Sequence record: NC_100371.1
Length of the DNA: 64,000 nucleotides
Direction: 5' to 3' (one strand)
DNA from: a phage
Of this stretch, positions 9,765 through 61,717 are shown in pieces (within the stretch, counting starts at the first letter, position 1; every line of letters begins with the position of its first letter). The notes under the pieces are model-generated. The model saw only the letters and a list, made by a program, of their open reading frames with translations. It made no database searches and had not been told where the DNA came from. Position numbers and translations under genes: made by a program.

Positions 9765-9815
9765 TTTGCTGTCTCCTAATGCAAAAAGCCCCACCCTTTC
9801 GGGCAGGGCCTAGTG

Positions 9816-14179: not shown

Positions 14180-15420
14180 TACGCCTCCTCGTAGATAATG
14201 TCGATAGTATTACCGTCGCGGTCAACCACGTACTCAATTGGGTCGCCATCTTTGCGCGATTCTGGAGCTACTACGATTTCGTAGCGGCATGCACGGCACT
14301 TGGCGCTGTTGTGTTGGTAAGGTACACTAACTACATCAGCAGGGTCAACCATAACCGTCATCACAGTTCCGTAGCTCTTTGCATACTCTTTGCTGGCACA
14401 GTGCAGGCCATAAGAGCATGCAGCTTCCGGATCATCCTCTACAAAGTTACGAGGCATGGATACAAAAGCCCCCTGGTATTGTGGGACTTTACCACTGTGC
14501 CAATCCACCCACTTGTCGCCGTTAAACTGAACCCCTTTGTAGCAAATGATTCGACCATCTTCTGCAATCTGAATGTCGTTTGCCTGCATAAAATCGTAGA
14601 GCATGTTTACAGATTTTGCAGAAGGATTGCGTAGCAGGCGAACGAGGAATTTCACATAGCGGTCATCCAGTGTTCCGTCTGCATAATCTTTCTCAATTTT
14701 CTTTGCAATGGTGGATCGCATCTCTACACCGTAGTAGTAGAGCTTACCATCTTTCATGATCAGGTTGTCTGCAAGTGTGGTGAACTCATTCTTGCGTTCC
14801 AGCCAGACAAGGATTTCACCAATTGCCTCGTCATATTCCTGAACAGAGATATGGTCGAAGACTTTCTGGTAAACTTCCTCACTTTCACTGCGGCGAATTT
14901 CAAAAATACCTTCGTTGCAGGTGATCTGGAGGAGTTCCCCGCAAATAACCACCAAAGGCTCGATGCTTCGGGTCTGTTGCTGAGACACACTGCTCACCAC
15001 CTCCAGCACCGGGTCTTTGACTTCTACTAAAGGTTCTTCTGACTTGATTGCTACCCCAGTGAACCCTACACCGTGAACAACACACAGCGGATATACCACG
15101 CCCCAACGTTTAACGGAACCTTCGCCTAAGTCTAAGATCATGGCGTACTTACCGTTATCTTCCAGCCCATATCGAAATAAACGGGCCTCTTCACGGGTTT
15201 CAAAATCCTCACGGGTGTAGCAGACGCTGTCACGGTCAGGATCGAACAACTCTGGGGCACCTACTGCCAGTGTCCAGGTTGTGTTACCTTTCTCAATAGC
15301 GCATGTGAAACCCTTCTTCTCAAGCTCTGCACGGCGGTCACGTGCTTCTTTACGAGTTTTGAAATGTTCGTAGATGAAAATCATCTTGGTCTCCTTATTT
15401 GATGTTATTCTTTGTATCAA
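14179..15420 (-). CDS. hypothetical protein with two N-terminal ~45-aa repeats
   Basis: 413 aa; repeated F-x-TR-x-EAR-x(4)-LE-x(2)-G motif (IFIYEHFKTRKEARDRRAELEKKG / YTREDFETREEARLFRYGLEDNG). Overlaps the GHKL gene by 26 nt. Confidence 0.5.
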   Translation of the reverse strand: MIQRITSNKETKMIFIYEHFKTRKEARDRRAELEKKGFTCAIEKGNTTWTLAVGAPELFDPDRDSVCYTREDFETREEARLFRYGLEDNGKYAMILDLGEGSVKRWGVVYPLCVVHGVGFTGVAIKSEEPLVEVKDPVLEVVSSVSQQQTRSIEPLVVICGELLQITCNEGIFEIRRSESEEVYQKVFDHISVQEYDEAIGEILVWLERKNEFTTLADNLIMKDGKLYYYGVEMRSTIAKKIEKDYADGTLDDRYVKFLVRLLRNPSAKSVNMLYDFMQANDIQIAEDGRIICYKGVQFNGDKWVDWHSGKVPQYQGAFVSMPRNFVEDDPEAACSYGLHCASKEYAKSYGTVMTVMVDPADVVSVPYQHNSAKCRACRYEIVVAPESRKDGDPIEYVVDRDGNTIDIIYEEA

Positions 15421-17377
15421 TCAGTTCACGGTATTCAATCATAGCAGGAGTGTCCCAATATTTCAAGCCTACATGCTTCAAAAGTGGATATTTCTTTTCC
15501 AATCTTGCAATATAGGCCTTCCCGCACTTAACCCGGTTGGCGATTAAGATTTTGGCACGATGATTTAGCTCACCGTACTTCCACGTGGTGCTACCTTCCC
15601 ACTTGTGGAAATGTGGCCGATAACTTCCAAAATCCTGCATGGGGATAATTTTACCTAACTGTCTGTACAGGTTGTCATATGAAGTTTCATTTGCTGCGCG
15701 AGTTAGTAAGAATTTCCAAGCATCCTCTTTCAACAAATGTTCCACATTCTTCTCTGTAACATATTGGCAATCAGGATCAGTCCAAAGCAGACGAGATTCC
15801 GACACCAGGTACAGATCTTCCCCTTCAGGAATCTGGAGTGCCGCACGCACACGGTCATAATCTTGCTGGTAGATGTTGCTCATCTGCCCTAGCCAACAAC
15901 TTCCGCGTTGGATATCCCCCTCATACGGTATGCAGTGCTTAATCTTCCTGAACTCTGCCTTAGTAATACGCTCACGCCGGAAGTAACCATCCTTCTCAAG
16001 TTTTTTAACCCAATAGCCTGGTTCGTAACGGGTTTTGGTTTCACCTTTCTTCGTAGGTCGGCGTGGAAGCTCCGATAACAATTTGACCGTATCTGCAAAA
16101 AACGGATGGTGTGCCGCCTCTTTAAACTCTTTCACCAGATCCGTGTTACGGCAATAGAAAACGTTGCGTCCGGTAATCTCGCTTAAGTAGTTACACTTAT
16201 TCCGGTTATATTTGCCGTCTCCGTCGTTAAATACTAAATAAACTCCCCGTAAGAATTCTACCTTTCCGTAGCAGGCGTAACCTATGCGGCCTTTATTTAA
16301 GCCGCCAGCGAAGATCTCGCAGTCCCCCAAATTTCCTAGCCCTGTTTCTTCCCAGCGGTCATACATAAAATTCTTACCGAAGATGTGCCCGAACACTCCA
16401 CTGTTCTTCATCATCTCGCGTGCTTCTGAGGATGTTTTTGCTGTCTCCAGTTCTGCAACAACTTCTGCTCCACGAAGGCGAATGCCTTCTTTGACAAAAG
16501 CTTCCAAACGCTCTTGGAATCCACCATCGTCGTGACCTTCTATGGTCCATTCACGCCCTGGGTTAATATTGCAATCTCCGATAGGGATCTCTACACAAAT
16601 TGCAGGATAATCTATTAGTGTCTCCAGGAACTTAGAACGGTAAGGTTGGTGACCCATTACCACACGACTCTCGTCAGAGCTGGTATAACCCTTCAGGATG
16701 GTCATCTTCCAACCATCTTTTTCATAATAATACTGCGCCTCTACTTTGTCTCCCTCCAGCATCTTGCTCGTCATCGGGTCGGTGACAGTGAACGGAAATT
16801 TTGCATAGCGCAGGCATGATGCAATAGCGGTGCGATATTTCAGAACATGCTCTTTCTTAACATGAAACTGAACTTTTACCCCGTTGTGCTCTTCAGTCTT
16901 CCGCTCACGGATCTTGGTGACATTTGGGATACCCTGGTCCAAGAACAATAGGTATGTGCTTTCCACACCGTTGTGCACACTGATTACATCGAAAGTGTCC
17001 ACCATGCTGAACGGGGCCTTTGAACCAACACCTTTATTGCCTACCAGAGCGTTGCTGTTGCGCTTGGTCGACTCACCGAGGTTCATGAAAGTGTTACGGA
17101 CCATCTCTTCTGACATGCCTAATCCAACGTCCTGCACAAAGAAGTATGGTTCAAGGTCTGTAGGAGAGTGAATGATGATCGGAACATCACCCCGTCCAGA
17201 CTCAACATGGGAGTCCACAGCATTGAAGATCGGTTCACGGCAGCTTGCCAGTACCTTATCTTCATAAATCCCTTTGATGATTAGCCCAAAAGTCTCTTTG
17301 TTCAGAGAAATTGATCCCCTGGTTACCTCCATATTCCCAGTTAGCACCGCTTTAGTTTCATTGCTGTTTACAATCAT
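15395..17377 (-). CDS. GHKL-superfamily ATPase (Hsp90/MORC-like ATP-binding domain) with ~450-aa C-terminal region of unknown function
   Basis: 660 aa. N-terminal Bergerat-fold motifs: REPIFNAVDS (N box), DVGLGMSEEM (G1), GNKGVGSKAPF (G2). Confidence 0.65.
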   Translation of the reverse strand: MIVNSNETKAVLTGNMEVTRGSISLNKETFGLIIKGIYEDKVLASCREPIFNAVDSHVESGRGDVPIIIHSPTDLEPYFFVQDVGLGMSEEMVRNTFMNLGESTKRNSNALVGNKGVGSKAPFSMVDTFDVISVHNGVESTYLLFLDQGIPNVTKIRERKTEEHNGVKVQFHVKKEHVLKYRTAIASCLRYAKFPFTVTDPMTSKMLEGDKVEAQYYYEKDGWKMTILKGYTSSDESRVVMGHQPYRSKFLETLIDYPAICVEIPIGDCNINPGREWTIEGHDDGGFQERLEAFVKEGIRLRGAEVVAELETAKTSSEAREMMKNSGVFGHIFGKNFMYDRWEETGLGNLGDCEIFAGGLNKGRIGYACYGKVEFLRGVYLVFNDGDGKYNRNKCNYLSEITGRNVFYCRNTDLVKEFKEAAHHPFFADTVKLLSELPRRPTKKGETKTRYEPGYWVKKLEKDGYFRRERITKAEFRKIKHCIPYEGDIQRGSCWLGQMSNIYQQDYDRVRAALQIPEGEDLYLVSESRLLWTDPDCQYVTEKNVEHLLKEDAWKFLLTRAANETSYDNLYRQLGKIIPMQDFGSYRPHFHKWEGSTTWKYGELNHRAKILIANRVKCGKAYIARLEKKYPLLKHVGLKYWDTPAMIEYRELIDTKNNIK

Positions 17378-17874
17378 TTATTGCGCTCCTTGTAGTAGAT
17401 ATGACTCCCGAATTGAGCTGTCCTCTGCATCTTTTTTGCCCATTTCGGTCGTACTTTTGTTGTATGGTAGTGTGTTGCTCCACCTGTTATATCCATAGCC
17501 ATGTATGCAACATGGTTGTTATTATAAACCTTTAGAAGCATCTTTGCAAGACTTTTAGCGTGATCCCATGAATCTTTTTCTGTCACCTTAAAAGTTTTGC
17601 CGTGGTTTGTCCACGAAAACTGGTTAGGTTGGTAGACAATCTTTCTTATAGTGTCTGGGTATTTGGGGTGAGATTTCCTGTTTAGTGTGGCAAATCCGGA
17701 TGCCAGCATCCCCATCGTGCCATCCCCTCTAGCCTCCCTGTAGATATTGCATGCTAGAATGTTTTCCTTAGTATCCGACGGCTTGCAAGTGTGATATACT
17801 TTTTGTTTTGGTGCTGCAACAACAGGCAGCGATAAAAATGCGCTCAAAATAATAGCAAAGATTTTAATTTTCAC
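17374..17874 (-). CDS. secreted SleB/CwlJ-family cell-wall hydrolase (candidate signal-peptide endolysin)
   Basis: 166 aa, GTG start with GGAG RBS. N-terminal signal-peptide-like MKIKIFAIILSAFLSLPVVAAP; SleB/CwlJ signature ACNIYREARGDG ... LNR ... QPNQFSW. Confidence 0.75.
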   Translation of the reverse strand: MKIKIFAIILSAFLSLPVVAAPKQKVYHTCKPSDTKENILACNIYREARGDGTMGMLASGFATLNRKSHPKYPDTIRKIVYQPNQFSWTNHGKTFKVTEKDSWDHAKSLAKMLLKVYNNNHVAYMAMDITGGATHYHTTKVRPKWAKKMQRTAQFGSHIYYKERNK

Positions 17875-17894
17875 AATAGCTCCAAATAGAAAAT

Positions 17895-17910
17895 CCCCGC
17901 CGAAGCGGGG
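17895..17910 (-). terminator. intrinsic terminator (UUCG-loop hairpin)
   Basis: Minus-strand RNA CCCCGC-UUCG-GCGGGG followed by AUUUUCUAUUU; same 16-mer as at 44316-44331. Confidence 0.55.
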
Positions 17911-17923
17911 TGTGTCTTAGAAA

Positions 17924-18304
17924 TTAATCGTAGTGTGCCAAAATCTCTCCATCGTTGCAAGTCCCCTCTACGAAGTTGTGAAGATTCATGCATTCATCTT
18001 GATAGAAGAATTTACCGCTTTTCAGCCGTAGACCAAACAACTCCGCATCTCCACGATGGCAAGCCTCTACAAGTTCATAGATTTCATACGGTAATTCCCC
18101 ATCGTCATGGAAGAACCCCGCTTTATCGTTGACATAGATGAAGAAATAGTCACTGCTGTCGCAAGCGTCCAGTATTTTAAACCAGATTTCATCCACATCT
18201 TTTTCTCGGATATCGATCACACAAGTGGAGCTGCATTCGTACTCCTTCTCCGGCTCCTCGGTCAATACCACTAGGTAGTTTCCCCGCTTACCTACTTTAG
18301 CCAT
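17924..18304 (-). CDS. hypothetical protein (126 aa)
   Basis: Co-oriented ORF followed by a terminator hairpin. Confidence 0.45.
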   Translation of the reverse strand: MAKVGKRGNYLVVLTEEPEKEYECSSTCVIDIREKDVDEIWFKILDACDSSDYFFIYVNDKAGFFHDDGELPYEIYELVEACHRGDAELFGLRLKSGKFFYQDECMNLHNFVEGTCNDGEILAHYD

Positions 18305-18313
18305 ACAACCTCC

Positions 18314-19498
18314 TCAAGCTTTAGCTAAAATGGCGCTAAACTCTTCACCAAACTCTTTTACAATCTTCATCAGGTTTGGGTATGCTTTGATCAGCTGAGC
18401 AACGATCTTGTCCCTGCCTTTACCAATAAGTAAGGCATTTCCTAAGGCGTTAGGTTTCATCATCGCCATAAAGACTGAGAATACAAAGTCTCGGTTCTCA
18501 TCCTTGAAATTTTCCCAAAGGAAATCAAGGAAGTTTGCCACACAGCTGACGAGATCTTCGTCGGAGATACTTGCATTTTCCATCATATTACGAATAGCGA
18601 TACAACCTTCAGACCCCAGAATCCACAAGATGTCTGGCTGCTTAGGACCTACATATTCTTTGCAGCCTCCTGCCATAATCCGACCGATTTCTGGCAAGTT
18701 TCGTTTCTTGGTGTGGTAGGTCCAAATTTCTACCGCTGCAGTGTGACCAATTGCACCTTGTAGAAGGACACGGGCCATAGCGTCAGAAATAATACCGCTG
18801 TCAAAATCGTGCAGGATGTCAGATGCAGCAACCCAAGATCGCGGTGTAGCAAAAGATGGACAATTAATCTCAGCCATGGCCTCATAATTATCGATGGCTG
18901 ATGGGACTCTTTTCAGATATCCAATTACCGAGGAGTGCACCCCATTAAGGAATGCATAGTCCTCAATAAACACCTCTGCACTGCTTGTAACTTCTACAAT
19001 GATAAAGCGGTTAGCTAGAGGAGCTTCGAGCGCCGAAAGAACAGCACCGTCTGTAGCACGGTTACCTGCAGCTACAAAAACAGAGCCCTTAGGAAATGCA
19101 TAGGTGCCGCACTTGTGGTCGAGCATAATTTGCATTGCAACCTTCTGCAGGTAGTTATCTGCATGAGTAAGCTCATCTAGAAAGATAATTCCGCTCCAGT
19201 CCGGATCTGCAGGCCAAAATTCTGGAATTGCAAACACTGTGCGTGTAGTCCCATCCGACTCTACAGGGATAGGTAGCCCAGATAAGTCAGCAGGATCTTT
19301 ATCTGACAACCGCACGTCAACCAGGTTGTCATCTCGCTCACCGAACATATTATCAGCAATCTGCTTCATCACCTGGCTCTTCCCCACGCCCATCGGTCCT
19401 AAAATCAGGACAGATCGGTTATGACGCTGGGCAAATTGAATAATAGCTGGCAACTCGCGGACAGTGATTTGACCACTTTCGAATACGTTTCTTGACAT
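18314..19498 (-). CDS. MoxR-family AAA+ ATPase (AAA_5; CobS/RavA-like)
   Basis: 394 aa. Walker A ILGPMGVGKS, Walker B IIFLDELTHA, sensor/arginine region AAGNRATDG ... ANRF typical of MoxR/CobS AAA+ proteins. Confidence 0.8.
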   Translation of the reverse strand: MSRNVFESGQITVRELPAIIQFAQRHNRSVLILGPMGVGKSQVMKQIADNMFGERDDNLVDVRLSDKDPADLSGLPIPVESDGTTRTVFAIPEFWPADPDWSGIIFLDELTHADNYLQKVAMQIMLDHKCGTYAFPKGSVFVAAGNRATDGAVLSALEAPLANRFIIVEVTSSAEVFIEDYAFLNGVHSSVIGYLKRVPSAIDNYEAMAEINCPSFATPRSWVAASDILHDFDSGIISDAMARVLLQGAIGHTAAVEIWTYHTKKRNLPEIGRIMAGGCKEYVGPKQPDILWILGSEGCIAIRNMMENASISDEDLVSCVANFLDFLWENFKDENRDFVFSVFMAMMKPNALGNALLIGKGRDKIVAQLIKAYPNLMKIVKEFGEEFSAILAKA

Positions 19499-28487: not shown

Positions 28488-28895
28488 ATGGATAATCTTG
28501 CAAGTGTGAACGTCGAAATTGTTAAACTAAAGTTCTTGGGCTTTCGAGACCCTAATTCTCTAACAGCTATACTGATGGATACCCACTTCACACCTGGGAA
28601 AGAGTACACTGCCTTCCGTTATATTTGTGGAGATCACGAATCGGCCTATAGTGTGAATACAAACCTCGGCGAGGGGTATTTCATCAAAGATATCACAGAT
28701 CACTTGTGGGGTATGTGGGAATTGGTGGAAGAAGAGAATAAATCCCTTCCCAAAGAGATTTGGGTGCACACCTTCCACACAGGTAAGTTCGGAGGTACGG
28801 AACATAAGTCTATCCACTATGAAGAAGAAAGTGCCATCAAACAACAAGCTGTGCTTGGTGGATCTGTAGAAAAATTTGTTAAATGCGAGGACTGA
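28488..28895 (+). CDS. hypothetical protein (135 aa)
   Basis: ORF track 28413..28895; ATG 28488 preferred (GAGGAG RBS, downstream of promoter). Confidence 0.5.
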   Translation: MDNLASVNVEIVKLKFLGFRDPNSLTAILMDTHFTPGKEYTAFRYICGDHESAYSVNTNLGEGYFIKDITDHLWGMWELVEEENKSLPKEIWVHTFHTGKFGGTEHKSIHYEEESAIKQQAVLGGSVEKFVKCED

Positions 28896-28898
28896 GAA

Positions 28899-29099
28899 AT
28901 GGCTGATTTTTGTAAAGATTGCTCTGAAGAGTTGTTTGGCTTTGACTGCAAAGATTTGGAAGGTCTGATCACTGAGGATCAGTGGAAGGAAGGCTATGCA
29001 GCACCTGTTATTTGTGAAGGTTGTGGCTATACCTATGTTGACCATAAAGGTAAGCGCGTCAAGCCGTCTGAAGATGGGGCATGTTGGGAGTATTACTAA
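28899..29099 (+). CDS. small zinc-ribbon-like Cys-rich protein (66 aa)
   Basis: CKDC ... CEGCG cysteine pairs. Confidence 0.45.
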   Translation: MADFCKDCSEELFGFDCKDLEGLITEDQWKEGYAAPVICEGCGYTYVDHKGKRVKPSEDGACWEYY

Positions 29100-29112: not shown

Positions 29113-29137
29113 GGGGCCATTTGGCCCCCCTTTTTTA
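29113..29137. terminator. bidirectional intrinsic terminator between convergent operons
   Basis: GGGGCC-ATTT-GGCCCC hairpin flanked by an A-run upstream and a T-run (TTTTTT) downstream. Confidence 0.7.
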
Positions 29138-32934: not shown

Positions 32935-34785
32935 CTAGGTGACTGATCCAGCATCCATTCTGTGGAGTCGGACCATATACGATGTATCTCCTTCTACCGC
33001 AGGCTGAGTCCCATTCAGCCCGAAGTATACAGTATCGTTAACATGGAACTGCTTGTTTCTACCAACGGTATGCCACTTACCGTCAGAAGGATACGCAGGA
33101 ACTATGGTGTTCCAGTTCAAAGTCCTTGTCGTGTGAGTTCTTCCTGTGCCATGTTTGTCATGATAGGTTATTTTTACAGAGTACAGGCCACGTCTGTTAA
33201 CATTCCTGTTATACTGAGTAACAACAACTTCGTTGGCCCCGCCGTGGTTCCAGTTGGTGGAGAATTGGTAATTTGCATCTGTAACAACCGTACCCGCAGC
33301 ATTTACCAGTTCAATCTTGTCAATAATGAACGTAGCCCCCTCTGGCTGAGGCTTCAATTTCATCTTGACCGTGTCACCAATGTAAATATTGCTAACACTG
33401 CTAACACCGTTAACGTCAAAAATATCATCAACACCCCAACTGTCTACTGGGACATTTTTATACCAATTCTCAGGAACCTCTGTGAACCCCTGACTATTAA
33501 GTCTTCCGCCAAACAGGTTGTTAGAGCCTGCAAAACTTCCCCTTGGGATGCCTGACCACCAAAGTTTACCATTAACAACAGTAAAGGTACCTAAAAAACC
33601 TTCTCTGTGAATGCCCTGGAAATAAACACTCTCTGTCCAGCTAACTGGGAGGCGTTGCTCAACGTATTTGGCTGTGGCAAGAGCTTGATAGTGGATAAAA
33701 TTGGCCCTAGGGTTATTGTTTGCAGATTGTGCGCCAATATCATTACATAAGTTGCGAGAGAATCCGCGATACTGCTTAGTGCCATTATTGAAGAAAATGC
33801 CACTTGTTCCGTACCCACGAGCCATTATTACTTCATGGGTGTAGGTAATATTTAAGGAACGCCATGTATCATCTCCCCAGACATCTTGCCCGTAGAATAC
33901 GTTAACAAGCTGCTGATCATTAGGCTTGTGCATCCTCTGCGTTGCAATTATCGCCCCGTTCGGACCACACATGAATCCTTTCCACTCCTCATCTGCAGGA
34001 ATGCCTTTCAAATCGTTGCGAGTAATCTGAGCAGGGGGCCAAACAAGGTCGTTTCTACTGTTGTTTCTCAGAAAGTCGTATCCAGCAATCCAAAAACCTC
34101 TGGGCCCACCGAAAATAACAGAGTTGTCATGCACCTCGCAGTTGATACTTGGGTTTTTCCAAGGGCCTGTTTCAGGATTTTCCGATGTTTCACCAATCTT
34201 TACAGGGGTTGCATGCTGGTTCTTATCTACATGTAAAGATCCGTAGGTGTTGTTACCAGACCCGTACAGGTGTAAAATGCCGTCACCCTCAGCCTCTGCC
34301 ATAACCCAAACAGTGTTGTTAATACCGCCCATTACCTCGATAAGGCGCTCTGGGTGGGTGTCAAGGTGCAATCCTTGAACAATCTGTTCCGGAAGAGGTG
34401 TCCACTCGTTTACGCAAACATCGTTACCACCTGCCGCAGTGGATCCGATAAGACCTGCAGTGCAGCCGATGTAGAAAAACTGGTTATCAAAAGTCCGGAT
34501 CACAAACGCACGGTCTGCTCTCCACACATGATCAACATTCCAGGCCGTCTCGCTCGGGTAGTTTATAGGGTTACGATCCCCAGTGCGACACTCCCCGAAC
34601 TTGTTATAGCCAGTAATATTAAGCTGACCATCGTCAAAAAGTATAGCTAAGCTATTTACATAAGCTACTGTAGTGCTTGTACCGTCACTGTTGTCTATTG
34701 GGTATGACAGAACAGCAAGTTCCTTAACTCCACCCCTCTTATCGAGGAAATGACGACCAAGTTTTAGCAAAGGGATTGGAAGCAT
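32935..34785 (-). CDS. putative tail fibre / receptor-binding protein
   Basis: 616 aa, Gly/Asn-rich beta-type sequence; located in fibre cluster. Confidence 0.45.
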   Translation of the reverse strand: MLPIPLLKLGRHFLDKRGGVKELAVLSYPIDNSDGTSTTVAYVNSLAILFDDGQLNITGYNKFGECRTGDRNPINYPSETAWNVDHVWRADRAFVIRTFDNQFFYIGCTAGLIGSTAAGGNDVCVNEWTPLPEQIVQGLHLDTHPERLIEVMGGINNTVWVMAEAEGDGILHLYGSGNNTYGSLHVDKNQHATPVKIGETSENPETGPWKNPSINCEVHDNSVIFGGPRGFWIAGYDFLRNNSRNDLVWPPAQITRNDLKGIPADEEWKGFMCGPNGAIIATQRMHKPNDQQLVNVFYGQDVWGDDTWRSLNITYTHEVIMARGYGTSGIFFNNGTKQYRGFSRNLCNDIGAQSANNNPRANFIHYQALATAKYVEQRLPVSWTESVYFQGIHREGFLGTFTVVNGKLWWSGIPRGSFAGSNNLFGGRLNSQGFTEVPENWYKNVPVDSWGVDDIFDVNGVSSVSNIYIGDTVKMKLKPQPEGATFIIDKIELVNAAGTVVTDANYQFSTNWNHGGANEVVVTQYNRNVNRRGLYSVKITYHDKHGTGRTHTTRTLNWNTIVPAYPSDGKWHTVGRNKQFHVNDTVYFGLNGTQPAVEGDTSYMVRLHRMDAGSVT

Positions 34786-42745: not shown

Positions 42746-44236
42746 TTAAATAGTTTGTTGGAAAGTTATATTACTTTCGTCTAGATCAAACACCTCAGTC
42801 ATGTTTGCAACAATATCGTTTGTGGTGTAAGCTTCATCAGAGGCCCCCACAGGTTTGACTTGAATTACAAGTCTGTTAAATCTGCCTATTGACACAGCAG
42901 CCGATGCAGCACCAACCAATTGGATATTGTACAATGTATCTGCAACATCCAGTCCGTTAACAACCTGCAAAAGAGCCTCTACAATGGCATCTTTTTCGGT
43001 TGTAGAAAGCGCAGCACCTGAGTAGGTAATTCTTACATCTAGGCGGTAGGTATTTGCCTTGGAGTAATAAATCCTTTCAGTCTGACCGTCTGATGTGGTA
43101 ATATCGTAGAAGATATTCCCATAAGTTCTGTTTGTGCAAGCTATGGTTTGATACAGCGCCTGACAGATATCCTCTGTTGCACCACCAAACACCACCACTT
43201 GAAACTTATAAGGTGGTATACCTTTCGCATCCGTTTTATCGGTGTTGTTAGAGAACACTCTTACTTTCTCAACACCCTTCACCTCGCTTACAGCGCTAAG
43301 GATTGCAGGACGGGTAGCTTTAGATGTCAACTGTTTAGTGCTGGAAGCTCTTAGGCGATACTCAGAGTCTTTCTCAACATCCCTGCCCTCATTGAATCTT
43401 TCTCGGTTGGTAAGCTTGATAAATCCACTGGGAGTAGGTGACATTGTTGTCACGGTTTCTGCCTCTCTTGACAGCTCACCCGCCTCGTTAGCGATAACAT
43501 CTAGGGTGATAGTTCTTTCCCCTACAATCGGGGATACTCTGAAATCTACCCTGCTATTAAGTCCAACTTGATCAAGATTCGAATTGTACCCTATCCACAA
43601 CGTCCCTGTCAACATATCTATCTGAATTAAATCATCATTCAGCAGGGTTGTATTATCGACAATGAATTGCTTAATCTCGCCGTAAAAGCTTGGCAAATCA
43701 GAAGAGTCCAGAGCCTTATCTGTTAAAACCAGACTTTTTGTTTTGATACTTCCGTCTGTCTGGTTGGTAATTTGAAAGTTGTATTTCCCAATTCTTAGGT
43801 CTGGAGCGTTTATTCTGTGAGCAATAAGATTTCCCGCCACCTGCACATCGTTGCTAAGAACAAAGTTGCCACTGTCCAGCGTATAAGTTTTGGAATCATA
43901 AATCATATTGTACGGCACAGTTGTATTGATTGTCAACTGGCAGGTACCTGATGATTTAGAACGGCCTCTTCGGTAAATACCCTGTCTTCCAAGAAGCTCA
44001 TCCAGGTAAATACCTTCTGCCCCATATAGCGTCTGTGATGCGTATACAGATGCTGCCATAAGAATAAGTTGATATTCTCGCTCGTTGAAAATAGTGGTCA
44101 GCTTATCTGCAACTGAGTTACTTTGTACGTTGAAGTTTTCGCCAAAAGCACGGATCAGGCTTTGCTTAGTTTCAACGATTAGGTCATTTAGGGTTGGTAT
44201 AACGAAACCAGCCTCTGTCAATCCATACTTAGCCAC
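42746..44236 (-). CDS. baseplate wedge protein, Baseplate_J-like (P2 gpJ / Mu gp47 family)
   Basis: 496 aa; N-terminal MAKYGLTEAGFVIPTLNDLIVETKQSLIRAFGENF typical of Baseplate_J proteins. Confidence 0.55.
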   Translation of the reverse strand: MAKYGLTEAGFVIPTLNDLIVETKQSLIRAFGENFNVQSNSVADKLTTIFNEREYQLILMAASVYASQTLYGAEGIYLDELLGRQGIYRRGRSKSSGTCQLTINTTVPYNMIYDSKTYTLDSGNFVLSNDVQVAGNLIAHRINAPDLRIGKYNFQITNQTDGSIKTKSLVLTDKALDSSDLPSFYGEIKQFIVDNTTLLNDDLIQIDMLTGTLWIGYNSNLDQVGLNSRVDFRVSPIVGERTITLDVIANEAGELSREAETVTTMSPTPSGFIKLTNRERFNEGRDVEKDSEYRLRASSTKQLTSKATRPAILSAVSEVKGVEKVRVFSNNTDKTDAKGIPPYKFQVVVFGGATEDICQALYQTIACTNRTYGNIFYDITTSDGQTERIYYSKANTYRLDVRITYSGAALSTTEKDAIVEALLQVVNGLDVADTLYNIQLVGAASAAVSIGRFNRLVIQVKPVGASDEAYTTNDIVANMTEVFDLDESNITFQQTI

Positions 44237-44269
44237 GTCACTCCTCCGGTATGAAAATCTCTACAAGGT

Positions 44270-44331
44270 ATTTTACCAAATTTTGTAACAATAGTCAATC
44301 TGAGCATAAAAATAAACCCCGCCGAAGCGGG
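44270..44331 (-). promoter_or_regulatory. intrinsic terminator (UUCG-loop hairpin) followed by extended -10 promoter
   Basis: Minus strand: CCCCGC-TTCG-GCGGGG (44316-44331) + U-rich tract, then TTGACT (44297-44292), 16-nt spacer, TGG-TAAAAT (-10 at 44275-44270). Confidence 0.55.
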
Positions 44332-44341
44332 GCTTTAAAGG

Positions 44342-47300
44342 TTAGTCGTGAGACTCGTTCCAAGGTCCCTGGAAGCTTGAGTTAGAACGACTAACGATCA
44401 CAGTGGGACAGGAGATTGTGACACCTGTCACGCTAGACGTTGACCACGGTGTGTAAATCTCGATAACAATGTCTATAGTTTGTTCACCCAGACCTGTTAT
44501 CCCTACCGCACACATGCCGTTGTTGTCGTTAAAATACTTCTTGCCAGCAAGGATCTGATGACCAGCTATCCATGCATTCAGCTGGGAGCTGGCAAGAGTA
44601 CCATTCAGTTTAAAGAAGAATGTTACGTTCTTACCCTGACCTGAAACGTTATCTACGTATCTCCACCTCCAACGGCAAACCCTTTGCTGGGAGTTATATA
44701 CTGGAGCACAATCTCCGTAAGTCCTGTGTGCAACGATTGCACCTTCGAACTGGTTAGCACGGATAACGGAAGCTTCTACACGTCCACGGAATGTACCTCC
44801 TGTTGCATCTATGGTCCCTCTAAAGCTACCGTTGTTGGCATAAACATCCCCACGGAAGGTACCACTGGTGGCGTTAACTGCCCCTGTGAAGTTACCTGCA
44901 CTAGCGTTAATGTTACCTTTCACCCACACATCCATAAACTGGGCGTGCCCGTTCTTGTTAATATACCAACCGTATTTGTGGTACCCATTGCCATCGTAGT
45001 TGTTTGACGAAATTTCTTGCGCGATCTTGGCAGAAGAGATCGTGCCGTTCTCTATAAAAGCGTCTTTCAAGAACGCTTGGTTGTTCTTGATTGCGAAAGC
45101 AAGGGTTGCTGTCCCATTGCCCGGGTTGTATACCGCAAAGTTGTTTGCGCTAACCATGAAATATGACTGAACTTGGCCTCCAGAGCCTTCCATGCCTAAC
45201 TGGATACCTGCCACATACTTATTCCCTGCGGAGTCTACCTGTATTTTTGTGCCCCATTGAGCATTTACTTTGCCCTCTAAGTCGGTCACAGCCTTAGATG
45301 TTGTAGCCACTGCAGCTCTGAGCTCTGACACATCCCCAACATCATCAATGATCTCCTGCTTAGCAACAGCAAGTTCTTGACGAATAGCTGACGCTGTGCC
45401 GTTAATAAGATCCACGGTTGCTTTGTTGGTATCGGAAATTGTAGCATCCAGAGCTGTCTTTGTGGAGGTCAGTTTACCATCTAAATCCTTAATCGCCTGT
45501 TTGTTGGTAGAAATCTCCCCACGTGCAGAGGTTATCTGCTCTGACAGTGCAGAGGTTTTCTGATTCAACAAATCGGTGGTGGCCTTGTTGGTATTGGCAA
45601 TCAAGGTATTGAGATCAGTTTTTGCGGTAGTTATCTTACCATCAAGGGTGGTATAGTTTTTAGATACCGTCGCGTTTGTCTGACTAATCTTTTGATCCAG
45701 GGTCTCAGAGGTCTTGTTCAAAAGATCCACTGTCGCTTTGTTGGTGCTCAGGATGCTTGCATCAAGTTCCGTTCTCTGGGTGTTGATCTTGCCATCCAGA
45801 GTTTTATCTCCGGCAAGGTATCCGCTCTCCACACCATCTATTTGTTCTACCAACTCCCCTTTGGCTGCAACCAATTTCTCGTCTAAAGCCTCTGTCTTTT
45901 TGTTCAGAAGATCAGTGGTTGCTTTATTGGTTGTCTCGATCAGGGATGCCAGTCTTCCACTTTCAGTGTTCAGATCGTTGGTGAACTTGTTCTGTGCAGC
46001 AACAAGTTTCCTATCCAGAGCTGTGATATTTCCATTGACATCCTCAAACTTCTGAGTTGTCTCTGTAACTACCGCACCTATCCTATCTCCAAGTTGTTGG
46101 AATGCCTCATCTACCCTTCCGTCCATGTACTTGTTAAGCTCTGTGACACGATTTTCAACCTCCTCGATAGAGGAATCTAAAGTGCTCATCAACTCTTTAT
46201 AAGTTTCTGTCTTTTTAAATTCAGCATCTATCTGAGGCATCAAATCTTCAATAGAGGTGTAGCAGCGTGCAGCGCATTCTACAAACTGAGAACTACCAAA
46301 AGCGTTTGTGGTTCGAATATACCAATAATAAATCTTATCGTTCTGCAGACCTTCAGATGTCCAAGTTGAACCAACACCCATACGGGTGGCTTTTGAAGTA
46401 ACGGTTGCATCACTTGTGTCCGGCAACCTTGTCATACCAGATGTCCAAAAATCATACTGGGTGCTTACACTTGCTAAGTCCCTGCTGTGCGGAATCAAGG
46501 TGATAGCAAAGTATCCCTGCTTAACTTCTACAGAAACAGGAGCTTCAGGTGCTTGAATGTTGAACTCGCAGTAGGCTTCTGGAGATACACCACCTTTATA
46601 AGATGTTGCAACCACGGTTGCTGTGTATGACCCTTTGGTCAATCCTTCTACGCGGACAAACTGCTCGACTGTTTGTGCTGTCCAAATAATCTCTCCGTTC
46701 TTTCTTACCTGCACAATATTTTGAGCATAAGTTCCAACGTTGTCCCAAGCCAAAACACCATGAGTTACTTCCCCAGCTTGAAGAACAGAGTATCTGAAGT
46801 TTTGCGGTTGAGCTACGCCGGACGGGGATATCGGAATATCCACATCTCCAGAATCCGGAAGTTGCCCTGTGGCATCATTCCACTCTTTAGCATCTTGACG
46901 GAGTTTTACCTTGACACCGCCCTTTTTGGTGAACTCCCATTCAAGAACCCTCATTTCTTGGCCCACTATACCAATACTTGGAAGGTCCATCGTAACGTAA
47001 CGCCCAGGCTTAAATTTAAAACCCCGCATATTGCAGGTTACTTCAATAATCCTGCCAGCTCTGGCACGTCTTAAGAATATTGCGGAAACACGCTGAGCCT
47101 GATAAGGACTGGTAACAAAACGATAATCTATATCAATTATCTTTCTTTCTCCGTCCTTCTCTACCCATTCAGGTACGAACACCGACGGGAAGTCTGTTTC
47201 AGAATACCCTTTGGTTGGACTGGTGAATCTTCCGGTTATTGTGTTTGATCTTTTGTCGAAGGAGGCTTCAGGATAGATCTTAACCTCACCGCAAACACAG

Positions 47301-48181
47301 TCCTCACTCAGTGTCATTGTTGCCGGGCCATAGTATGCACCTACCAGTAGACCATATTTGCCAGCCACATAGCTAAGGTCTGCACCACAAGCCTTCAGCA
47401 TCTCTGCCATAATACTTGCTGGTGCTTCGTCCATGTCGAACTCGCCATTAATGGTGTAACGGCGCTCACTGGTTCCGTCCGCGTTTTTTACAGCCTCGTC
47501 GCATATGTTGGCAGCTTCCTTGAAGGACTCCCAGTTGATGGTTTCGTCAGGACATTTAAGGTACGTTCTTAGATAGTCCAGAATCACCAAGGCAGCGTTA
47601 TTGGTATACATCTCTTTACTGATACGAGGATCATAACATTTTTTACCAACCTTGACAAGTGTAACGTTTGGCAACCCAAAAGGAAACTTGTTAGGGTCAA
47701 ACTTAAAGCTGGCACGTAGCCAACTGATACCTCTACCTATCATGTCTGGTGACCACGAAGGGCAGTGTGTTCCCATGAAAGGATCAGAGGTTTTCCTGTC
47801 GTTATGTAACTCCCACGATACCAAATCCCCATACGAGGAAATAGGATTACCGTCGATAAGTATATCTTCTATACCTTCCAAGGGATGATTGGCAAGAACA
47901 ATAGCACAATGAAGGGTTCTGTCCCTGTCCTGCTCCAAAAACGCAAGCAACCCAGATGTGCGTGTCTTCCCATACACTACAGAGCAAGGTGCAGCAGAAG
48001 ATCTGAGAAGTTTTTGTCTATCTTGCTGACTCCTGTAAGATTTGTTTCCTTCGAAAATCTTATCCAGGGTTCTGGTGGTAACAGTGTTCAGGCTGTCAGC
48101 CAGAGCTGCCTTGGATGCGTTCCAGTCATAGCTCGAAGATCTTGCAGAAGCAACGATGTTATCAATCATTGCAATTGGCAT
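44342..48181 (-). CDS. central tail fibre / host-specificity protein, lambda gpJ-like, with internal coiled-coil tandem-repeat insertion
   Basis: 1279 aa. FN3-like region (APEAPVSVEVKQGYFAITLIP ... YYWYIRTTNAFGSSQFVE) and C-terminal region (FMVSANNFAVYNPGNGTATLAF) resemble lambda J from memory; ~200-aa insertion with TNKAT[TV]DLLN-type repeats. Confidence 0.65.
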   Translation of the reverse strand: MPIAMIDNIVASARSSSYDWNASKAALADSLNTVTTRTLDKIFEGNKSYRSQQDRQKLLRSSAAPCSVVYGKTRTSGLLAFLEQDRDRTLHCAIVLANHPLEGIEDILIDGNPISSYGDLVSWELHNDRKTSDPFMGTHCPSWSPDMIGRGISWLRASFKFDPNKFPFGLPNVTLVKVGKKCYDPRISKEMYTNNAALVILDYLRTYLKCPDETINWESFKEAANICDEAVKNADGTSERRYTINGEFDMDEAPASIMAEMLKACGADLSYVAGKYGLLVGAYYGPATMTLSEDCVCGEVKIYPEASFDKRSNTITGRFTSPTKGYSETDFPSVFVPEWVEKDGERKIIDIDYRFVTSPYQAQRVSAIFLRRARAGRIIEVTCNMRGFKFKPGRYVTMDLPSIGIVGQEMRVLEWEFTKKGGVKVKLRQDAKEWNDATGQLPDSGDVDIPISPSGVAQPQNFRYSVLQAGEVTHGVLAWDNVGTYAQNIVQVRKNGEIIWTAQTVEQFVRVEGLTKGSYTATVVATSYKGGVSPEAYCEFNIQAPEAPVSVEVKQGYFAITLIPHSRDLASVSTQYDFWTSGMTRLPDTSDATVTSKATRMGVGSTWTSEGLQNDKIYYWYIRTTNAFGSSQFVECAARCYTSIEDLMPQIDAEFKKTETYKELMSTLDSSIEEVENRVTELNKYMDGRVDEAFQQLGDRIGAVVTETTQKFEDVNGNITALDRKLVAAQNKFTNDLNTESGRLASLIETTNKATTDLLNKKTEALDEKLVAAKGELVEQIDGVESGYLAGDKTLDGKINTQRTELDASILSTNKATVDLLNKTSETLDQKISQTNATVSKNYTTLDGKITTAKTDLNTLIANTNKATTDLLNQKTSALSEQITSARGEISTNKQAIKDLDGKLTSTKTALDATISDTNKATVDLINGTASAIRQELAVAKQEIIDDVGDVSELRAAVATTSKAVTDLEGKVNAQWGTKIQVDSAGNKYVAGIQLGMEGSGGQVQSYFMVSANNFAVYNPGNGTATLAFAIKNNQAFLKDAFIENGTISSAKIAQEISSNNYDGNGYHKYGWYINKNGHAQFMDVWVKGNINASAGNFTGAVNATSGTFRGDVYANNGSFRGTIDATGGTFRGRVEASVIRANQFEGAIVAHRTYGDCAPVYNSQQRVCRWRWRYVDNVSGQGKNVTFFFKLNGTLASSQLNAWIAGHQILAGKKYFNDNNGMCAVGITGLGEQTIDIVIEIYTPWSTSSVTGVTISCPTVIVSRSNSSFQGPWNESHD
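45380..46010 (-). repeat. imperfect tandem repeats (~160 bp unit, about 4 copies) inside the gpJ-like gene
   Basis: Recurrent DNA segments near 45400, 45560, 45720 and 45905 (e.g. gatccac[tg]gt[tc]gctttgttgg) encoding repeated TNKATxDLLN units. Confidence 0.55.
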
Positions 48182-48618
48182 TAATACCTCCAGACATCAA
48201 CAACGATAGAATCTTTCATGTCGAACATAAAGATCCCTTTATCACCTTTCGCCCAAATCTGGTTGTTCCAGAACACACCAGCGGTTAGCCCGTTCAGACC
48301 TTTGAAAATAACAATATCACCACGCTGAACCTGTTTAGGAGTATCCAGTCGAGTCAAAAAGAGATCAAAAATAGTAGGCAGGTGTGTGGTTTTGAAACGA
48401 AGCATGCACCATCTCTTGCTTTCCAACTCTGTTTTATATGTTCCTTCAAAGTTAGAAATAAAATCTGTTCCGTATTGGGCATCAACACACTTAGCCGCAA
48501 AGGTGCAGCAATCGTGGAATCCCCATTCAAACGGGACGGTGGCTTCTTCGTCAAACACTTTCCACAATCTTTCTTGCCAGTCTACTAAACGAGGGTGTGT
48601 GCTCATTAAACCTCCCAA
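48181..48618 (-). CDS. tail assembly protein, NlpC/P60-like (lambda gpK-like position)
   Basis: 145 aa directly upstream of gpJ-like gene (start/stop overlap); HDCCTF and GDIVIF resemble a possibly degenerate NlpC/P60 fold. Confidence 0.35.
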   Translation of the reverse strand: MGGLMSTHPRLVDWQERLWKVFDEEATVPFEWGFHDCCTFAAKCVDAQYGTDFISNFEGTYKTELESKRWCMLRFKTTHLPTIFDLFLTRLDTPKQVQRGDIVIFKGLNGLTAGVFWNNQIWAKGDKGIFMFDMKDSIVVDVWRY

Positions 48619-49172
48619 ATGATCGGGCGGCTTGCCACCTGATCCACATATTTAAAAAATCTGTCATTATCGTTTCTTGAGCTATGGCTTTCCTCTGTGT
48701 ATCGATAAGGAAAACCTCTTAACCAGCTGTTGAAGATGGAAGAGATGGATATAGACAAAGCACTATTCTCCCCTGTCTGAATAGCCATGTCTGTTATAAG
48801 GCCGTCAAACAAGCCATTAGTTGTAACAGGTAAACCATTCTCCATAGCGGTGATATATAACGTGGCACGGCAACCAGAATACTCCGTCTTCAGCAGATCA
48901 CCTACATACTTGGGATCAAACCCGTTCAATGTTGCTACCACAGATCCGAAGTTGGTGGCATCTTTCTCAGACACAGCAGTCAATGTTGCTGATCCACCTA
49001 TTCCTATAAAATGTTGCCCCTCAATCACCACAACACCAGTGCCTGAGCACACCCTGACAGTTCCTGTTGGCAGCTCTAGCTTTGCAGCAATTAAGATCTC
49101 AACACTATCAAGCTCTAGCTTTTCAAGAAATAAATTATCTAATGGCGCTCTTATCATCTTAGAAATCCTCAA
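48606..49172 (-). CDS. putative minor tail protein (lambda gpL-like position)
   Basis: 188 aa; synteny upstream of K-like and J-like genes. Confidence 0.3.
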   Translation of the reverse strand: MRISKMIRAPLDNLFLEKLELDSVEILIAAKLELPTGTVRVCSGTGVVVIEGQHFIGIGGSATLTAVSEKDATNFGSVVATLNGFDPKYVGDLLKTEYSGCRATLYITAMENGLPVTTNGLFDGLITDMAIQTGENSALSISISSIFNSWLRGFPYRYTEESHSSRNDNDRFFKYVDQVASRPIIWEV

Positions 49173-49749
49173 AGAAGTTGATAACTATATTGTCACCTTT
49201 CTGCATAGCATCAACCTTTTGCTTAATCTTATAGAGATCCCTGATATGAAATCTACCCTTCGGAGATTGAGTTATTATCTTCATAGTATCTCCTGCGGCA
49301 ATAGGTTTCCTAAGTCTTGGTGATATGTTTATAACAGCTGCCCCCACACCATCACTTCGCACTGAGGATGTTACAACTTTCAACTCATCATTGACAGATA
49401 TTTTATCCCCAGCCCTGACTATATCTCTGTTCGGTTCCCAACCAACCGTCTTCAAAAAATCGTCATTACCAGTTGGTCCTAGAGCGATTGGCTCATTGGA
49501 AGTAACTGAATGACCATAGGCCTTGATAAGAAAAATGTTTCCATCTTTGTAAACCTGATCAACAAAACTTTTAAGCTCCAATAGCTGGGACTCACTTATA
49601 TTGGAAACCGTCAAAGTTCCTTTCCAGTTGGGCGTGGCATAGGTTACTTTTTGCGTCTTACCTGTAAACGGGCTTTTAAACGTAACAATATCTGCCAGCA
49701 ACTCCAATCTAATATCTGGAAGATATCTAGGTCTTTCCCATAAAAACAT
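49159..49749 (-). CDS. putative tail protein (196 aa)
   Basis: First gene after a terminator/promoter junction; GGAGG RBS. Confidence 0.4.
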   Translation of the reverse strand: MFLWERPRYLPDIRLELLADIVTFKSPFTGKTQKVTYATPNWKGTLTVSNISESQLLELKSFVDQVYKDGNIFLIKAYGHSVTSNEPIALGPTGNDDFLKTVGWEPNRDIVRAGDKISVNDELKVVTSSVRSDGVGAAVINISPRLRKPIAAGDTMKIITQSPKGRFHIRDLYKIKQKVDAMQKGDNIVINFFEDF

Positions 49750-49780
49750 TATGCCTCCAGGTTAAACAATTATGATAGTT

Positions 49781-49840
49781 ATTTTACCAGATTTTAAGTT
49801 AATACGCAATACAAACAAAAAGCCCTCGCCGAAGCGAGGG
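49781..49840 (-). promoter_or_regulatory. intrinsic terminator (UUCG-loop hairpin) followed by extended -10 promoter-like motif
   Basis: Minus strand: CCCTCGC-TTCG-GCGAGGG (49823-49840) + CUUUUUGUUUG, then TTGCGT (49809-49804), 17-nt spacer, TGG-TAAAAT (-10 at 49786-49781). Confidence 0.5.
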
Positions 49841-49854
49841 CAATACTTTATACT

Positions 49855-50187
49855 TTAAAGTGCTTCCAAGGTAGATACTGATGGGTCGAACATGTTCAAC
49901 CTTATCGGATCTACAATTTTTCCGCTTTTAGAGATGATATTTTCTGCATCTTCGTCCAGAGCCAGAACGTTGACATAAAACAATTTACTTTTCTCGCAAA
50001 CTGGGTAGACAACCATGTTGCCAAACTCATCCTCGGCCTCATAAGTGTCTTCAGTTTCTGTGTAAATGAACCCGACAACCTCTACAAGAAGGGTGTTTTG
50101 CAACACCTCATTCTCGTAAAAGCCGATTTCGTCCATGAAACCGTTAAAATCCTCCCTACCAGTAAACCCAAGGGTAAAAGTATTCAT
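49855..50187 (-). CDS. hypothetical protein (110 aa), possible fibre chaperone
   Basis: Start overlaps the stop of the 1479-aa fibre gene; acidic. Confidence 0.4.
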   Translation of the reverse strand: MNTFTLGFTGREDFNGFMDEIGFYENEVLQNTLLVEVVGFIYTETEDTYEAEDEFGNMVVYPVCEKSKLFYVNVLALDEDAENIISKSGKIVDPIRLNMFDPSVSTLEAL

Positions 50188-53100
50188 TATTCAACACTCT
50201 CCATCATAAGCTGGGTGTCGGTCAATGCAGAGTTCCAAACTCTTACATCTTTAATATGACCAAACAAATGTCTTTCACCTGTCGCCGTTTGACCTCCGAG
50301 ACGGATGAGAGCGCCTCCTGCCAGGAATTCCCAAGAAGATTGCGTTTCCGTACTCACCAATCCGTTAGCAAAAGAGCAGGTTTTACCGTCATCTTTTATC
50401 CTGAACCCAATTTTCAATTTACGTGTTTTAGCCATCTCATAGACACGTCTGTTTGAACCGCCAATATCACAATATGGATAACCATCTTCTGCAATATTTG
50501 CTGCAGAGCCAAATCCCATGATAAATGCAGCACCGTATTGGTGGCCCTCTGTATCAATAACTCTAGGAGCTGCGTTAGGAGCTTTTCCCCAACCTCTCCA
50601 GTTGGCATCCACCGTAGCGGCGATGGTGAACGGTCTAGGTGCTAAATTATCAGTCATTGGGAATTTACAAAGGTCTGCTGCCCTAGTCACTGGTGAAGAC
50701 CCTGTAGGGATAAACGAGGACTCACAAGATCCTAACTCGAACTGAGGTATTGCGACGTCAACCCAATCCCCTACGGCATGTTGAGAACCATCCGGTGGGG
50801 CAATCTGGAACTGGCACCCAATATTCATGTCAGAGTCCACTGCCTCAAACGTAGCAACAACTCTTATCCAAGCAGGTCCGGCTGTTTGCCATCTCTCAGC
50901 TTTTACTTTAATTCTCCCAGCTGCAACACCTGTTGTTTTAACTTCAAGTGTTGACAGGTTAACATAGGCATCACCTTGGAATACTGTGGTGGATCCGTTA
51001 TACATGTCAAATCTTACACGCAGTCTCTGGTGAGCTTTACCACCTCTTGCAATAATAGACCCAGTACAAAATTTCTCAGCACCTGTTACATCTGCACCAC
51101 GGGTGGCTGGAACTGTAGCCAGGTTTAACGCTGTTGTTTCTACACCGGATACGTTGCTTACTGTAAATCTTGCACCTTTTGTGCCGTTGGTGTTTGTTAC
51201 AGTGTTACCGACCGTAATCTGTGACTGGGCTCCCCATTTGCTCGGATCTTCACTGTTAAGCATCAGATTTGTCCTTTGACCTTCAATGAGCAGACCATCT
51301 CTTTCGAAACGTGGTTGGTTTGCCTGTGCAACAGCCATGACACCGCGCTTAGTGAAATAGGTTGCGGTAGAAGGTCTGGAGAAGATCATCTCCCCCTCAC
51401 CTAACACAGGTTTCAGGTTAGAGGTTAAAGGTAGCCACAGATCTGGCATAACTGGGGCAGTTGTACTTTCTGGGAAGCTAGTTCTCTTCCAAGGGCTCCA
51501 GTTCATTCCACTGCCAGTGTTATTATAATACCTTTCCCACGTTCCACCAAGATACATTTTATATATCTGGACACACCCTGTACCCTCGTTGGCAGAGTTT
51601 CTAAGCACGATAAGCGTACCAGCCATCTGCTGTCCTGGTGGGTAGTGTCTCTCCGCTGTGGCGTTGGCATTTGCCTCTTGATGGTAAATACCTTCGCGAT
51701 CCGCTTTGTAATCGTTAAGGTCGCTAGTTCCCAACCCTTGTCCACGGTGCTGAATAACTTTGTTCCACGCTCTGTGGTTACCCTGCTCTATGGAACGGGT
51801 GTACAGCTGATCTAAACGACCTGCCATCTGGAAAGCATAGTTTCCAGAAAATGCCACAGACAACCCACCAACAACCATTGAACCTTCAGGCCCGTTGACG
51901 TTGCCAGCCAGTATTTTGGACGGATTATTATTTCCGAACTGGTTGTTCCAGTCTGCACCTGTGTGGCATACAAAACCACCTGGGGCCGAGAAAGTACCGT
52001 CTTTGTTGAAATTGTAGAATCTGTGAGCTGTGCCAACAACATCGCGAACAATAACTTGACCCGCTTCTGGAGTAGATCTGAACTCTGCCTGACCTTTGAG
52101 ACCAGCACCATTGCCGCATTTAGAGGTAAATGTGCCGTTAGTCAGATCCTCTGTCCCATCTGATGCACACTGGAATCCTGCATTAGAGAATAACGCCTTT
52201 CTAGGACTGCTGTAGCACAAATAGTCAATACCGTCTGCCCATAGCTCGACTTTCGGCATGTTCATTTTGCTCATCACTGCATAGCGTTCAGCAGTGCCTA
52301 TATAGTGCCACTGTGTGCCGCCGCCAGTGTAGAACCCAGAAGTACCTTTGAAGTCAACAATAGGTCTGGTGTTTGTATTGTTATCTCCAAGAACAGCAAG
52401 ATTCAAGTCTGCCGACTGGAGAGGTGAAACGAACTTAACACCGTCCTGATTGTTTGTTACAGAGCCGACCTGATAATCTTGCTCTCTGGTAAACACTTCG
52501 ACAACATTTCTACTTGCGTATATGCTAACAGGGAAAGCACGAGCCTCTACATAGAAAGCAACATACTCTTGTTTACCCCTTGTTGGAGCAACCATCCCAA
52601 GAATTGCTTTTTCATTCTGGTAGAAATTTACTACCCCGTAGAAAGAGTCTCCTCTGTCTGTCCAACCACCAGTTCTATAGTGACACTGCAAGGTGGCGCA
52701 GTTCATAGGGTCACCGCCAGATGAAGATCTGGTAACTATGGTAATATCAGTGCCAGTTGCTGGAGCATAGTACGGATCTGTTCTGACGATGATCGGGTAG
52801 TATTTCCCATCTTCCATTCCTGCGGTTCTTGGCAGTGTTAAGAAGTCTTTTACACCTGCTGCTATAGGAACTTTGAACAGATTCTGAGCATCTGCTAAAG
52901 TTGTAGCCCCAGTGCCGCCTGCGGCTTGAGGTAAAGGTTCCCACTTGGCCTTCCGGTTGTTATACACACCCCATTCCAGAGTGCCGTTACCGGATTCATC
53001 CATCCCTCCATCCCAAACGACCATTTTTGCGGCTTTCTTGGATCCCCAGAACCCTCTTTCTGCTCCTGAACTACGGATCCATTCCCCAAGTCCCCAGTTT

Positions 53101-61651: not shown

Positions 61652-61701
61652 CTAGATATTGTATCATAAAATAGCCGTTTTTACAACACCGATAAAATAA
61701 A

Positions 61702-61717
61702 GGGGGCCGGAGCCCCC
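61702..61717 (-). terminator. intrinsic terminator-like hairpin after the tape-measure gene
   Basis: GGGGGC-N4-GCCCCC followed by UUUAUUUUAU on the minus-strand RNA. Confidence 0.5.

Follow-up and report, generated by a model that had tools for sequence, protein, structure and literature searches.

What is the function of a 16-nt hairpin sequence that recurs exactly at two distant places in a phage genome, and did the two copies arise by duplication? The question is raised by the 64,000-nucleotide stretch of DNA analysed here (the window), for which a reading made from the sequence alone had proposed that a terminator hairpin with a UUCG loop is reused, either through duplication or as a selected structural element. 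The 16-mer, CCCCGCCGAAGCGGGG, is found exactly at 17895-17910 (site 1), as had been stated, and at 44317-44332 (site 2), one position on from the 44316-44331 first given. A third match to the pattern, with 2 mismatches, lies at 49824-49839; the near-identical hairpin noticed at 49823-49840 is present, and its full perfect stem is 49822-49841 with the sequence GCCCTCGC-CGAA-GCGAGGGC (site 3). Two exact matches and one two-mismatch match were thus returned from the window by a search for the 16-mer and its variants, and the 137,947-bp genome of phage rV5 holds exactly two exact copies.

Identity of the window and gene setting

The window is 96-99% identical to the Vequintavirus genomes NHEP1, B9-1, S127 and FV3, which are rV5-like E. 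coli myophages, and on sequence identity it is itself a Vequintavirus of the rV5-like kind. It corresponds approximately to positions 122610-137947 of rV5 followed by 1-48606, with rV5 position 1 at window position 15395; window 15385-15395 spans the arbitrary record start of both rV5 and Murica, at the rIIB/rIIA junction. Every search, conducted with window 17000-19000, 43300-45300 and 48800-50800, also matched 16-18 GenBank records that carry the name 'Campylobacter phage' and give C. jejuni as the host (C2, C5, C7 and C12 among them). Their protein identity to this E. coli Vequintavirus reaches 99%, and the stated host looks doubtful.

The genes flanking all three sites are carried by the minus strand. 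Site 1 occupies the gap between a gp003-like hypothetical gene (17924-18304), with the hairpin 13 nt past the stop codon (17924-17926), and a SleB-like cell-wall hydrolase gene (17374-17874; PF07486) that begins with GTG at 17874. Site 2 follows the 1279-aa central tail fibre gene (44342-48181), 6 nt past its stop, and precedes the baseplate wedge gene (42746-44236). Site 3 is located 13 nt past the stop of a 110-aa ORF (49855-50187), which is itself preceded by a 1479-aa tail fibre gene, and has the distal tail protein gene (49159-49749) downstream.

Sequence and folding of the three hairpins

The minus-strand RNA of site 1 (17895-17910) reads CCCCGC-UUCG-GCGGGG. At site 2 the same core is extended by AAG/UUU pairs to a hairpin at 44314-44335, and at site 3 the RNA (49822-49841) reads GCCCUCGC-UUCG-GCGAGGGC. 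The stems are all perfect with 4-nt loops, measuring 6 bp at sites 1 and 2 (9 bp at site 2 when the A-U/G-U extension is included) and 8 bp at site 3. On the coding strand the loop is C-UUCG-G with C-G closure at 3/3 sites, which by sequence (UUCG loop with a 5' C / 3' G closing pair) places each of them in the UNCG tetraloop class. A U-tract is present on the coding strand only. The U-rich tract described after each copy on the minus strand was confirmed, reading AUUUUCUAUUU at site 1 (17884-17894), where it is interrupted, and UUUAUUUUUAU at site 2 (U-tract UUUAUUUUUAUG at 44305-44316, with the U-run UUUAUUUUU); site 3 is followed by UUUUUGUUUGUA (49810-49821), with the U-run UUUUUGUUU. The scan required 5 T in 8 nt, which the tract of site 1 passes though interrupted. 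All three sites have the sequence features of an intrinsic terminator, namely a G+C stem (about 5-14 bp, with a loop of 3-8 nt), a U-tract and a location after a stop codon in the orientation of the gene, and they rank top in terminator scans of their regions.

The minimum free energies calculated with flanks were -15.3, -16.5 and -22.4 kcal/mol for sites 1, 2 and 3, with folding z-scores of -3.2, -3.3 and -5.9. The nearest-neighbour energy of the bare hairpin was -12.0 kcal/mol for sites 1 and 2 and -16.6 kcal/mol for site 3. Sites 2 and 3 have d-scores (d'Aubenton Carafa 1990) of +32 and +51, and site 1 one of approximately -1, which is borderline; these values serve for relative ranking only.

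An exact 16-nt repeat alone is not unusual at this length, as approximately 0.5 pairs are calculated to occur in 64 kb of random sequence; the window has three further exact direct repeats (D6, D7 and D9), 16-17 nt in length and all inside coding sequence. The 16-mer pattern gave 0 matches in 100 shuffles of the window versus the 3 observed. What is non-random is the combination of perfect G+C hairpins, short gaps after stop codons, UUCG on the coding strand and a U-tract.

Terminators annotated in related phages

Twenty rho-independent terminators were predicted in rV5 using ARNold and MFOLD (PMC3606486; Kropinski et al. 2013, Virol J 10:76). Terminator t003 in Table S4 of that study, CCCCGCTTCGGCGGGGATTTTCTATTT with -16.0 kcal/mol, matches site 1 exactly including the tail, and t041, GCCCTCGCTTCGGCGGGGGC..., is at the position of site 3 and differs from it at a single base (A/G) of the 3' arm. 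The loop is TTCG in 5 of the 20 and TCCG in 1. Site 2 is missing from the table, yet rV5 28667-28682 (window 44317-44332) has the identical hairpin and flanks. Terminators are annotated in Murica (RefSeq NC_041871.1) at 2501-2516, 28932-28947 and 34197-34216, corresponding to sites 1, 2 and 3, and in EdH4 (MK327930.1) site 3 is entered as "putative transcriptional terminator, -16.00". A U-A pair of the window at site 3 is U.G in rV5, Murica and EdH4. The rV5 annotations are computational predictions (ARNold/MFOLD), as are those of Murica and EdH4, and not mapped 3' ends. As predicted terminators, sites 1-3 had already been described.

The window also contains, from the same rV5 set, the UNCG-class terminator t049 at 61701-61718 on the minus strand (AGGGGGC-UCCG-GCCCCCU followed by UUAUUUUAU) and the bidirectional terminator t026/t027 at 29113-29128 (GGGGCC-AAAU/AUUU-GGCCCC), with convergent transcription units on either side.

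Promoters adjoining the hairpins

Site 2 is followed by a promoter at 44269-44298 on the minus strand (P036 of rV5) consisting of TTGACT, a 17-nt spacer and TAAAAT with an upstream TG. Within it, at 44269-44278 (minus strand), is the motif TGGTAAAATA, proposed as a late promoter by the rV5 authors (PMC3606486). The only other exact copy in the window (P040 of rV5) is located at 49780-49789, also on the minus strand, upstream of the distal tail protein gene. The two copies, versus 0.23 expected from shuffles, are 38 nt downstream of site 2 and 32 nt downstream of site 3. Since each of these sites is followed 32-38 nt on by the promoter motif, they are predicted to form terminator-promoter junctions between late transcription units. 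In NHEP1 a 29-aa 'hypothetical protein' CDS is annotated at window 44218-44307 (minus strand), covering the P036 region before the baseplate wedge gene; it is probably a spurious gene call.

At site 1 the U-tract runs straight into the Shine-Dalgarno sequence GGAG (17880-17883) and the GTG start (17874) of the hydrolase gene, and the gap from hairpin to start is too short for a promoter. The interrupted U-tract together with the lack of promoter room predicts a weak or leaky terminator, and site 1 is probably, judging from this arrangement, a leaky terminator and/or a 3' stabiliser.

A hairpin with a GAAA loop, the terminator-like t232 of rV5, is located at 9786-9811 on the minus strand (AGGCCCUGCCC-GAAA-GGGUGGGGCUU). 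The hairpin, GCCCUGCCC-GAAA-GGGUGGGGC, lies approximately 20 nt beyond a consensus promoter, TTGACA...TACAAT (P231 of rV5), and stands directly before an AGGAG ribosome-binding site, which places it in a leader and not only at the end of an operon.

Conservation of the stems in relatives

The syntenic position of site 2 was examined in 16 IMG/VR relatives with 57-100% identity in the baseplate protein. Nearly all have a G+C hairpin with a T-tract that precedes a motif of the TGGTAAAATA or TGATAAAATA type, the exception being one contig (L145) with a weak hairpin only. The stems differ among the relatives and include CCCCGC/GCGGGG, GGGGC/GCCCC, CCCGC/GCGGG, GGCCC/GGGCC and GGCCAGC/GCUGGCC. The consensus fold of 10 distinct Vequintavirinae-type sequences from this position has 7 bp, with compensatory double changes in 5 of the 7, none broken and the closing C-G pair invariant.

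Searches of IMG/VR with the single proteins gp003, hydrolase, gp040 and rIIA gave 2-3 near-identical contigs each, and site 1 was traced outside the genus in part, through GenBank genomes and the neighbouring ATPase. At its syntenic position different hairpins, GCCCC...GGGGC followed by UUUUNAU(A/U)UGGAG, are present in Mydovirus KpS8 and in two Seunavirus phages. Outgroup IMG/VR contigs (L296-L299; 73% ATPase identity) have CCCCUC-UUAUA-GAGGGG before the rIIA ribosome-binding site (L296 4073-4133), in which a G-C pair of site 1 is replaced by U-A. The contigs of this sister group have no SleB-like hydrolase gene in the interval from the gp003 homologue to rIIA. Site 3 was followed within Vequintavirus only, tblastn with gp040 yielding no match in more distant loci; across relatives its pairs vary as U-A versus U.G and as G-C versus G.U. 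The compensatory changes in relatives indicate that the stem structure is kept by selection.

The loop also shows a preference. UUCG is the commonest loop among terminator-like hairpins with 4-nt loops on the coding strand of relatives (stretches of approximately 20 kb), with 19 cases against 3 for the next. In the close relative IMGVR_UViG_3300010279_000001, with 95-99% protein identity for the genes compared, the stems are unchanged and the loop is UUAG at site 2 and UCCG at site 3; UUCG is accordingly preferred without being obligatory. The dominance of UUCG and the compensatory stems at the syntenic site are both in agreement with the earlier proposal of a selected structural element built on the UUCG tetraloop.

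Origin of the identical pair

The likeness of sites 1 and 2 stops at the hairpin and a general A/T-rich composition (repeat family D2), the flanks being unrelated. In the UUCG orientation the 16-mer was found in at least 120 viral contigs, the flanks being unrelated in most of them, and in at least 120 bacterial contigs from many phyla, both counts being lower bounds; at least 5 T were present in the next 8 nt at 96 of the 123 viral and 84 of the 118 bacterial occurrences listed. An outgroup with 73-79% protein identity has the 16-mer at site 2 with different flanks and CCCCUC-UUAUA-GAGGGG at site 1, which is separated from the 16-mer by one compensatory pair and a loop change. The proposal that the pair arose by duplication is therefore not supported, on account of the unrelated flanks, the two copies in rV5, the occurrence of the 16-mer in so many viral and bacterial contigs and the different hairpin at site 1 of the outgroup. 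The pair was likewise rejected as a dispersed repeat or duplicated module, for which copies sharing sequence beyond the hairpin would be expected.

The sequence space open to a 6-bp G/C stem with a C-G pair closing UUCG is small and strongly favoured, and the presence of the 16-mer in many unrelated viral and bacterial contigs marks it as a recurrent, convergent solution. For these reasons the identity of sites 1 and 2 most likely reflects convergence on a very common terminator, and convergence is a simpler reading than copying.

Copying of a short patch, by gene conversion or template switching at the palindrome, would instead make sites 1 and 2 a duplicated terminator module, which is considered quite unlikely. 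All Vequintavirus sequences examined (the window, rV5, Murica and two IMG/VR contigs) show the 16/16 identity, and the state of the outgroup, with the 16-mer at site 2 and a different site 1, would fit site 2 as the donor. However, the homology ends at the hairpin, with the flanks alike in A/T composition only, and a 16-nt tract lacking flanking homology would not be a normal product of recombination. Moreover, the same 16-mer arose in many unrelated genomes, and the stem of the outgroup site 1, CCCCUC/GAGGGG, already shares 5 of 6 pairs with it, so that one compensatory pair and a loop change would be enough. Also favourable to copying is a second identical pair in rV5, t213 and t232 (rV5 121343-121370 and 132395-132422; the t213 copy falls just outside the window), which share 22 identical nt including two G.U wobbles in unrelated flanks and which convergence explains less well. 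On the evidence of this pair, short-patch copying of terminators may occur in the lineage, sites 1 and 2 possibly included.

It is extremely improbable that the hairpins act at the level of DNA, as a protein-binding palindrome, a cruciform, a packaging or recombination signal or a dispersed repeat of the REP or MITE kind. In favour are the palindromic DNA and the location of site 3 at a breakpoint in the mosaic tail-fibre module. Against this stand the strict strand asymmetry, with UUCG and the T-tract always on the coding strand, the change of stems by compensation with the structure kept, and the presence of two copies per genome without conserved flanks; a scan of the whole window against Rfam 15 at the gathering threshold gave 0 family matches. 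The hairpins resemble REP/BIME repeats in being short intergenic G+C palindromes able to stabilise upstream mRNA, and differ from them in having two identical copies per genome, no consensus beyond the hairpin, no conserved flanks and a U-tract.

Proposed function

The mechanism of intrinsic termination is established for characterised terminators. Tuerk et al. reportedly described C(UUCG)G hairpins in phage T4 transcripts in 1988 (PNAS 85:1364) as stable intercistronic structures, and d'Aubenton Carafa et al. are said to have found such hairpins among the intrinsic terminators of E. coli in 1990 (JMB 216:835). The hairpins of the window resemble those of T4 and E. coli in having a UUCG loop closed by C-G on a short G+C stem, in lying between cistrons of a lytic coliphage and in being followed by a U-tract, and the same two roles, terminator and stable 3' structure, are proposed for them. 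They differ from the T4 hairpins in lineage, Vequintavirinae and not Tevenvirinae, and in being predicted from sequence. In PMC3972237, with citation of Tuerk 1988 and of d'Aubenton Carafa 1990, UUCG and GAAA tetraloops are stated to nucleate unusually stable hairpins and to serve both as rho-independent terminators and as stops to reverse transcription in T4 mRNA. Loop sequences are not treated in the TERMITe Term-seq paper.

The terminator reading first made for these hairpins is supported by their position and strand, the U-tracts, the compensatory changes and the prior annotation in rV5, EdH4 and Murica. It is highly probable that sites 1-3 are intrinsic terminators for E. coli RNA polymerase on minus-strand operons and that sites 1 and 2 are identical by convergence. 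Termination itself at the three sites is a prediction, no Term-seq, RNA-seq or other 3'-end mapping study of a Vequintavirus having been found in the literature. By analogy with characterised terminators, polymerase passing the stop codon would transcribe a G+C stem capped by C(UUCG)G, which would fold fast into an unusually stable hairpin. Transcript release would then result from formation of this hairpin in the RNA exit channel and from the weak rU:dA pairing along the U-tract, and the hairpin left at the 3' terminus would shield the upstream mRNA from 3'-exonucleases. Sites 2 and 3 would in this way close tail-fibre transcription units, and transcription would restart after each from the extended -10 or late-type promoter TGGTAAAATA, P036 serving the baseplate wedge gene 42746-44236. 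Site 1, 11 nt from the Shine-Dalgarno sequence of the hydrolase gene, would act as a partial terminator that lowers read-through into hydrolase, rIIA and rIIB.

Alternatively, the hairpins, and site 1 above all, could act after transcription as a barrier to 3'-exonucleases, a stabiliser of processed ends or a leader structure that influences how the next gene is translated, with polymerase largely reading through. This is considered unlikely. The U-tract of site 1 is interrupted and its terminator score borderline; the ribosome-binding site follows too closely to leave space for a promoter, so that the downstream genes would need read-through; and a hairpin directly before the Shine-Dalgarno sequence is conserved across genera. 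Further points of the same tenor are that the C(UUCG)G hairpins of T4 reportedly first drew attention as stable structures between cistrons and that the hairpin at 9786-9811 is in a leader, downstream of a promoter. Sites 2 and 3, on the other hand, have canonical U-tracts and a promoter each, an arrangement that is sensible if transcription ends there, and T-runs follow the 16-mer in 71-78% of the listed occurrences in unrelated genomes. The two roles are not mutually exclusive, and given its poor U-tract and borderline score, site 1 may be mainly an mRNA stabiliser or may not terminate transcription at all.

Significance

Termination at sites 1-3 has little import beyond the quality of annotation. 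The sites would delimit late transcription units (tail-fibre and baseplate) of the rV5-like phages, a group employed in biocontrol of E. coli O157. As compact unidirectional terminators, and at sites 2 and 3 as terminator-promoter junctions, they could also find use in phage engineering. More generally, the exact recurrence of a short terminator hairpin with a UUCG loop is no evidence for duplication, since the 16-mer turns up repeatedly in unrelated phages and bacteria.

Two more far-reaching ideas were considered, and it is very unlikely that either one holds: that the hairpin before the SleB-like hydrolase and rIIA is a regulated attenuator, or that terminators of the site 3 type are preferred junctions for exchange of the tail-fibre modules that set host range. 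The attenuator idea derives from the conservation of the hairpin position across genera of the Vequintavirinae while its sequence turns over; if true, read-through brought about by phage antitermination or a change of polymerase would time or dose the lysis-related genes. If terminators were exchange junctions, short-patch copying of terminators would be a by-product, as suggested by the pairs site 1/site 2 and t213/t232.

Mosaic breakpoint at site 3

The site 3 hairpin is located at a mosaic breakpoint. Homology to rV5 (93%) covers 44000-49846, ending 5 nt past the hairpin, and resumes at 51679. Within window 49842-51678 a different module is made up of the 110-aa ORF and the C-terminal portion of the 1479-aa tail fibre gene; EdH4 and one IMG/VR contig share this module, and rV5 and Murica do not.
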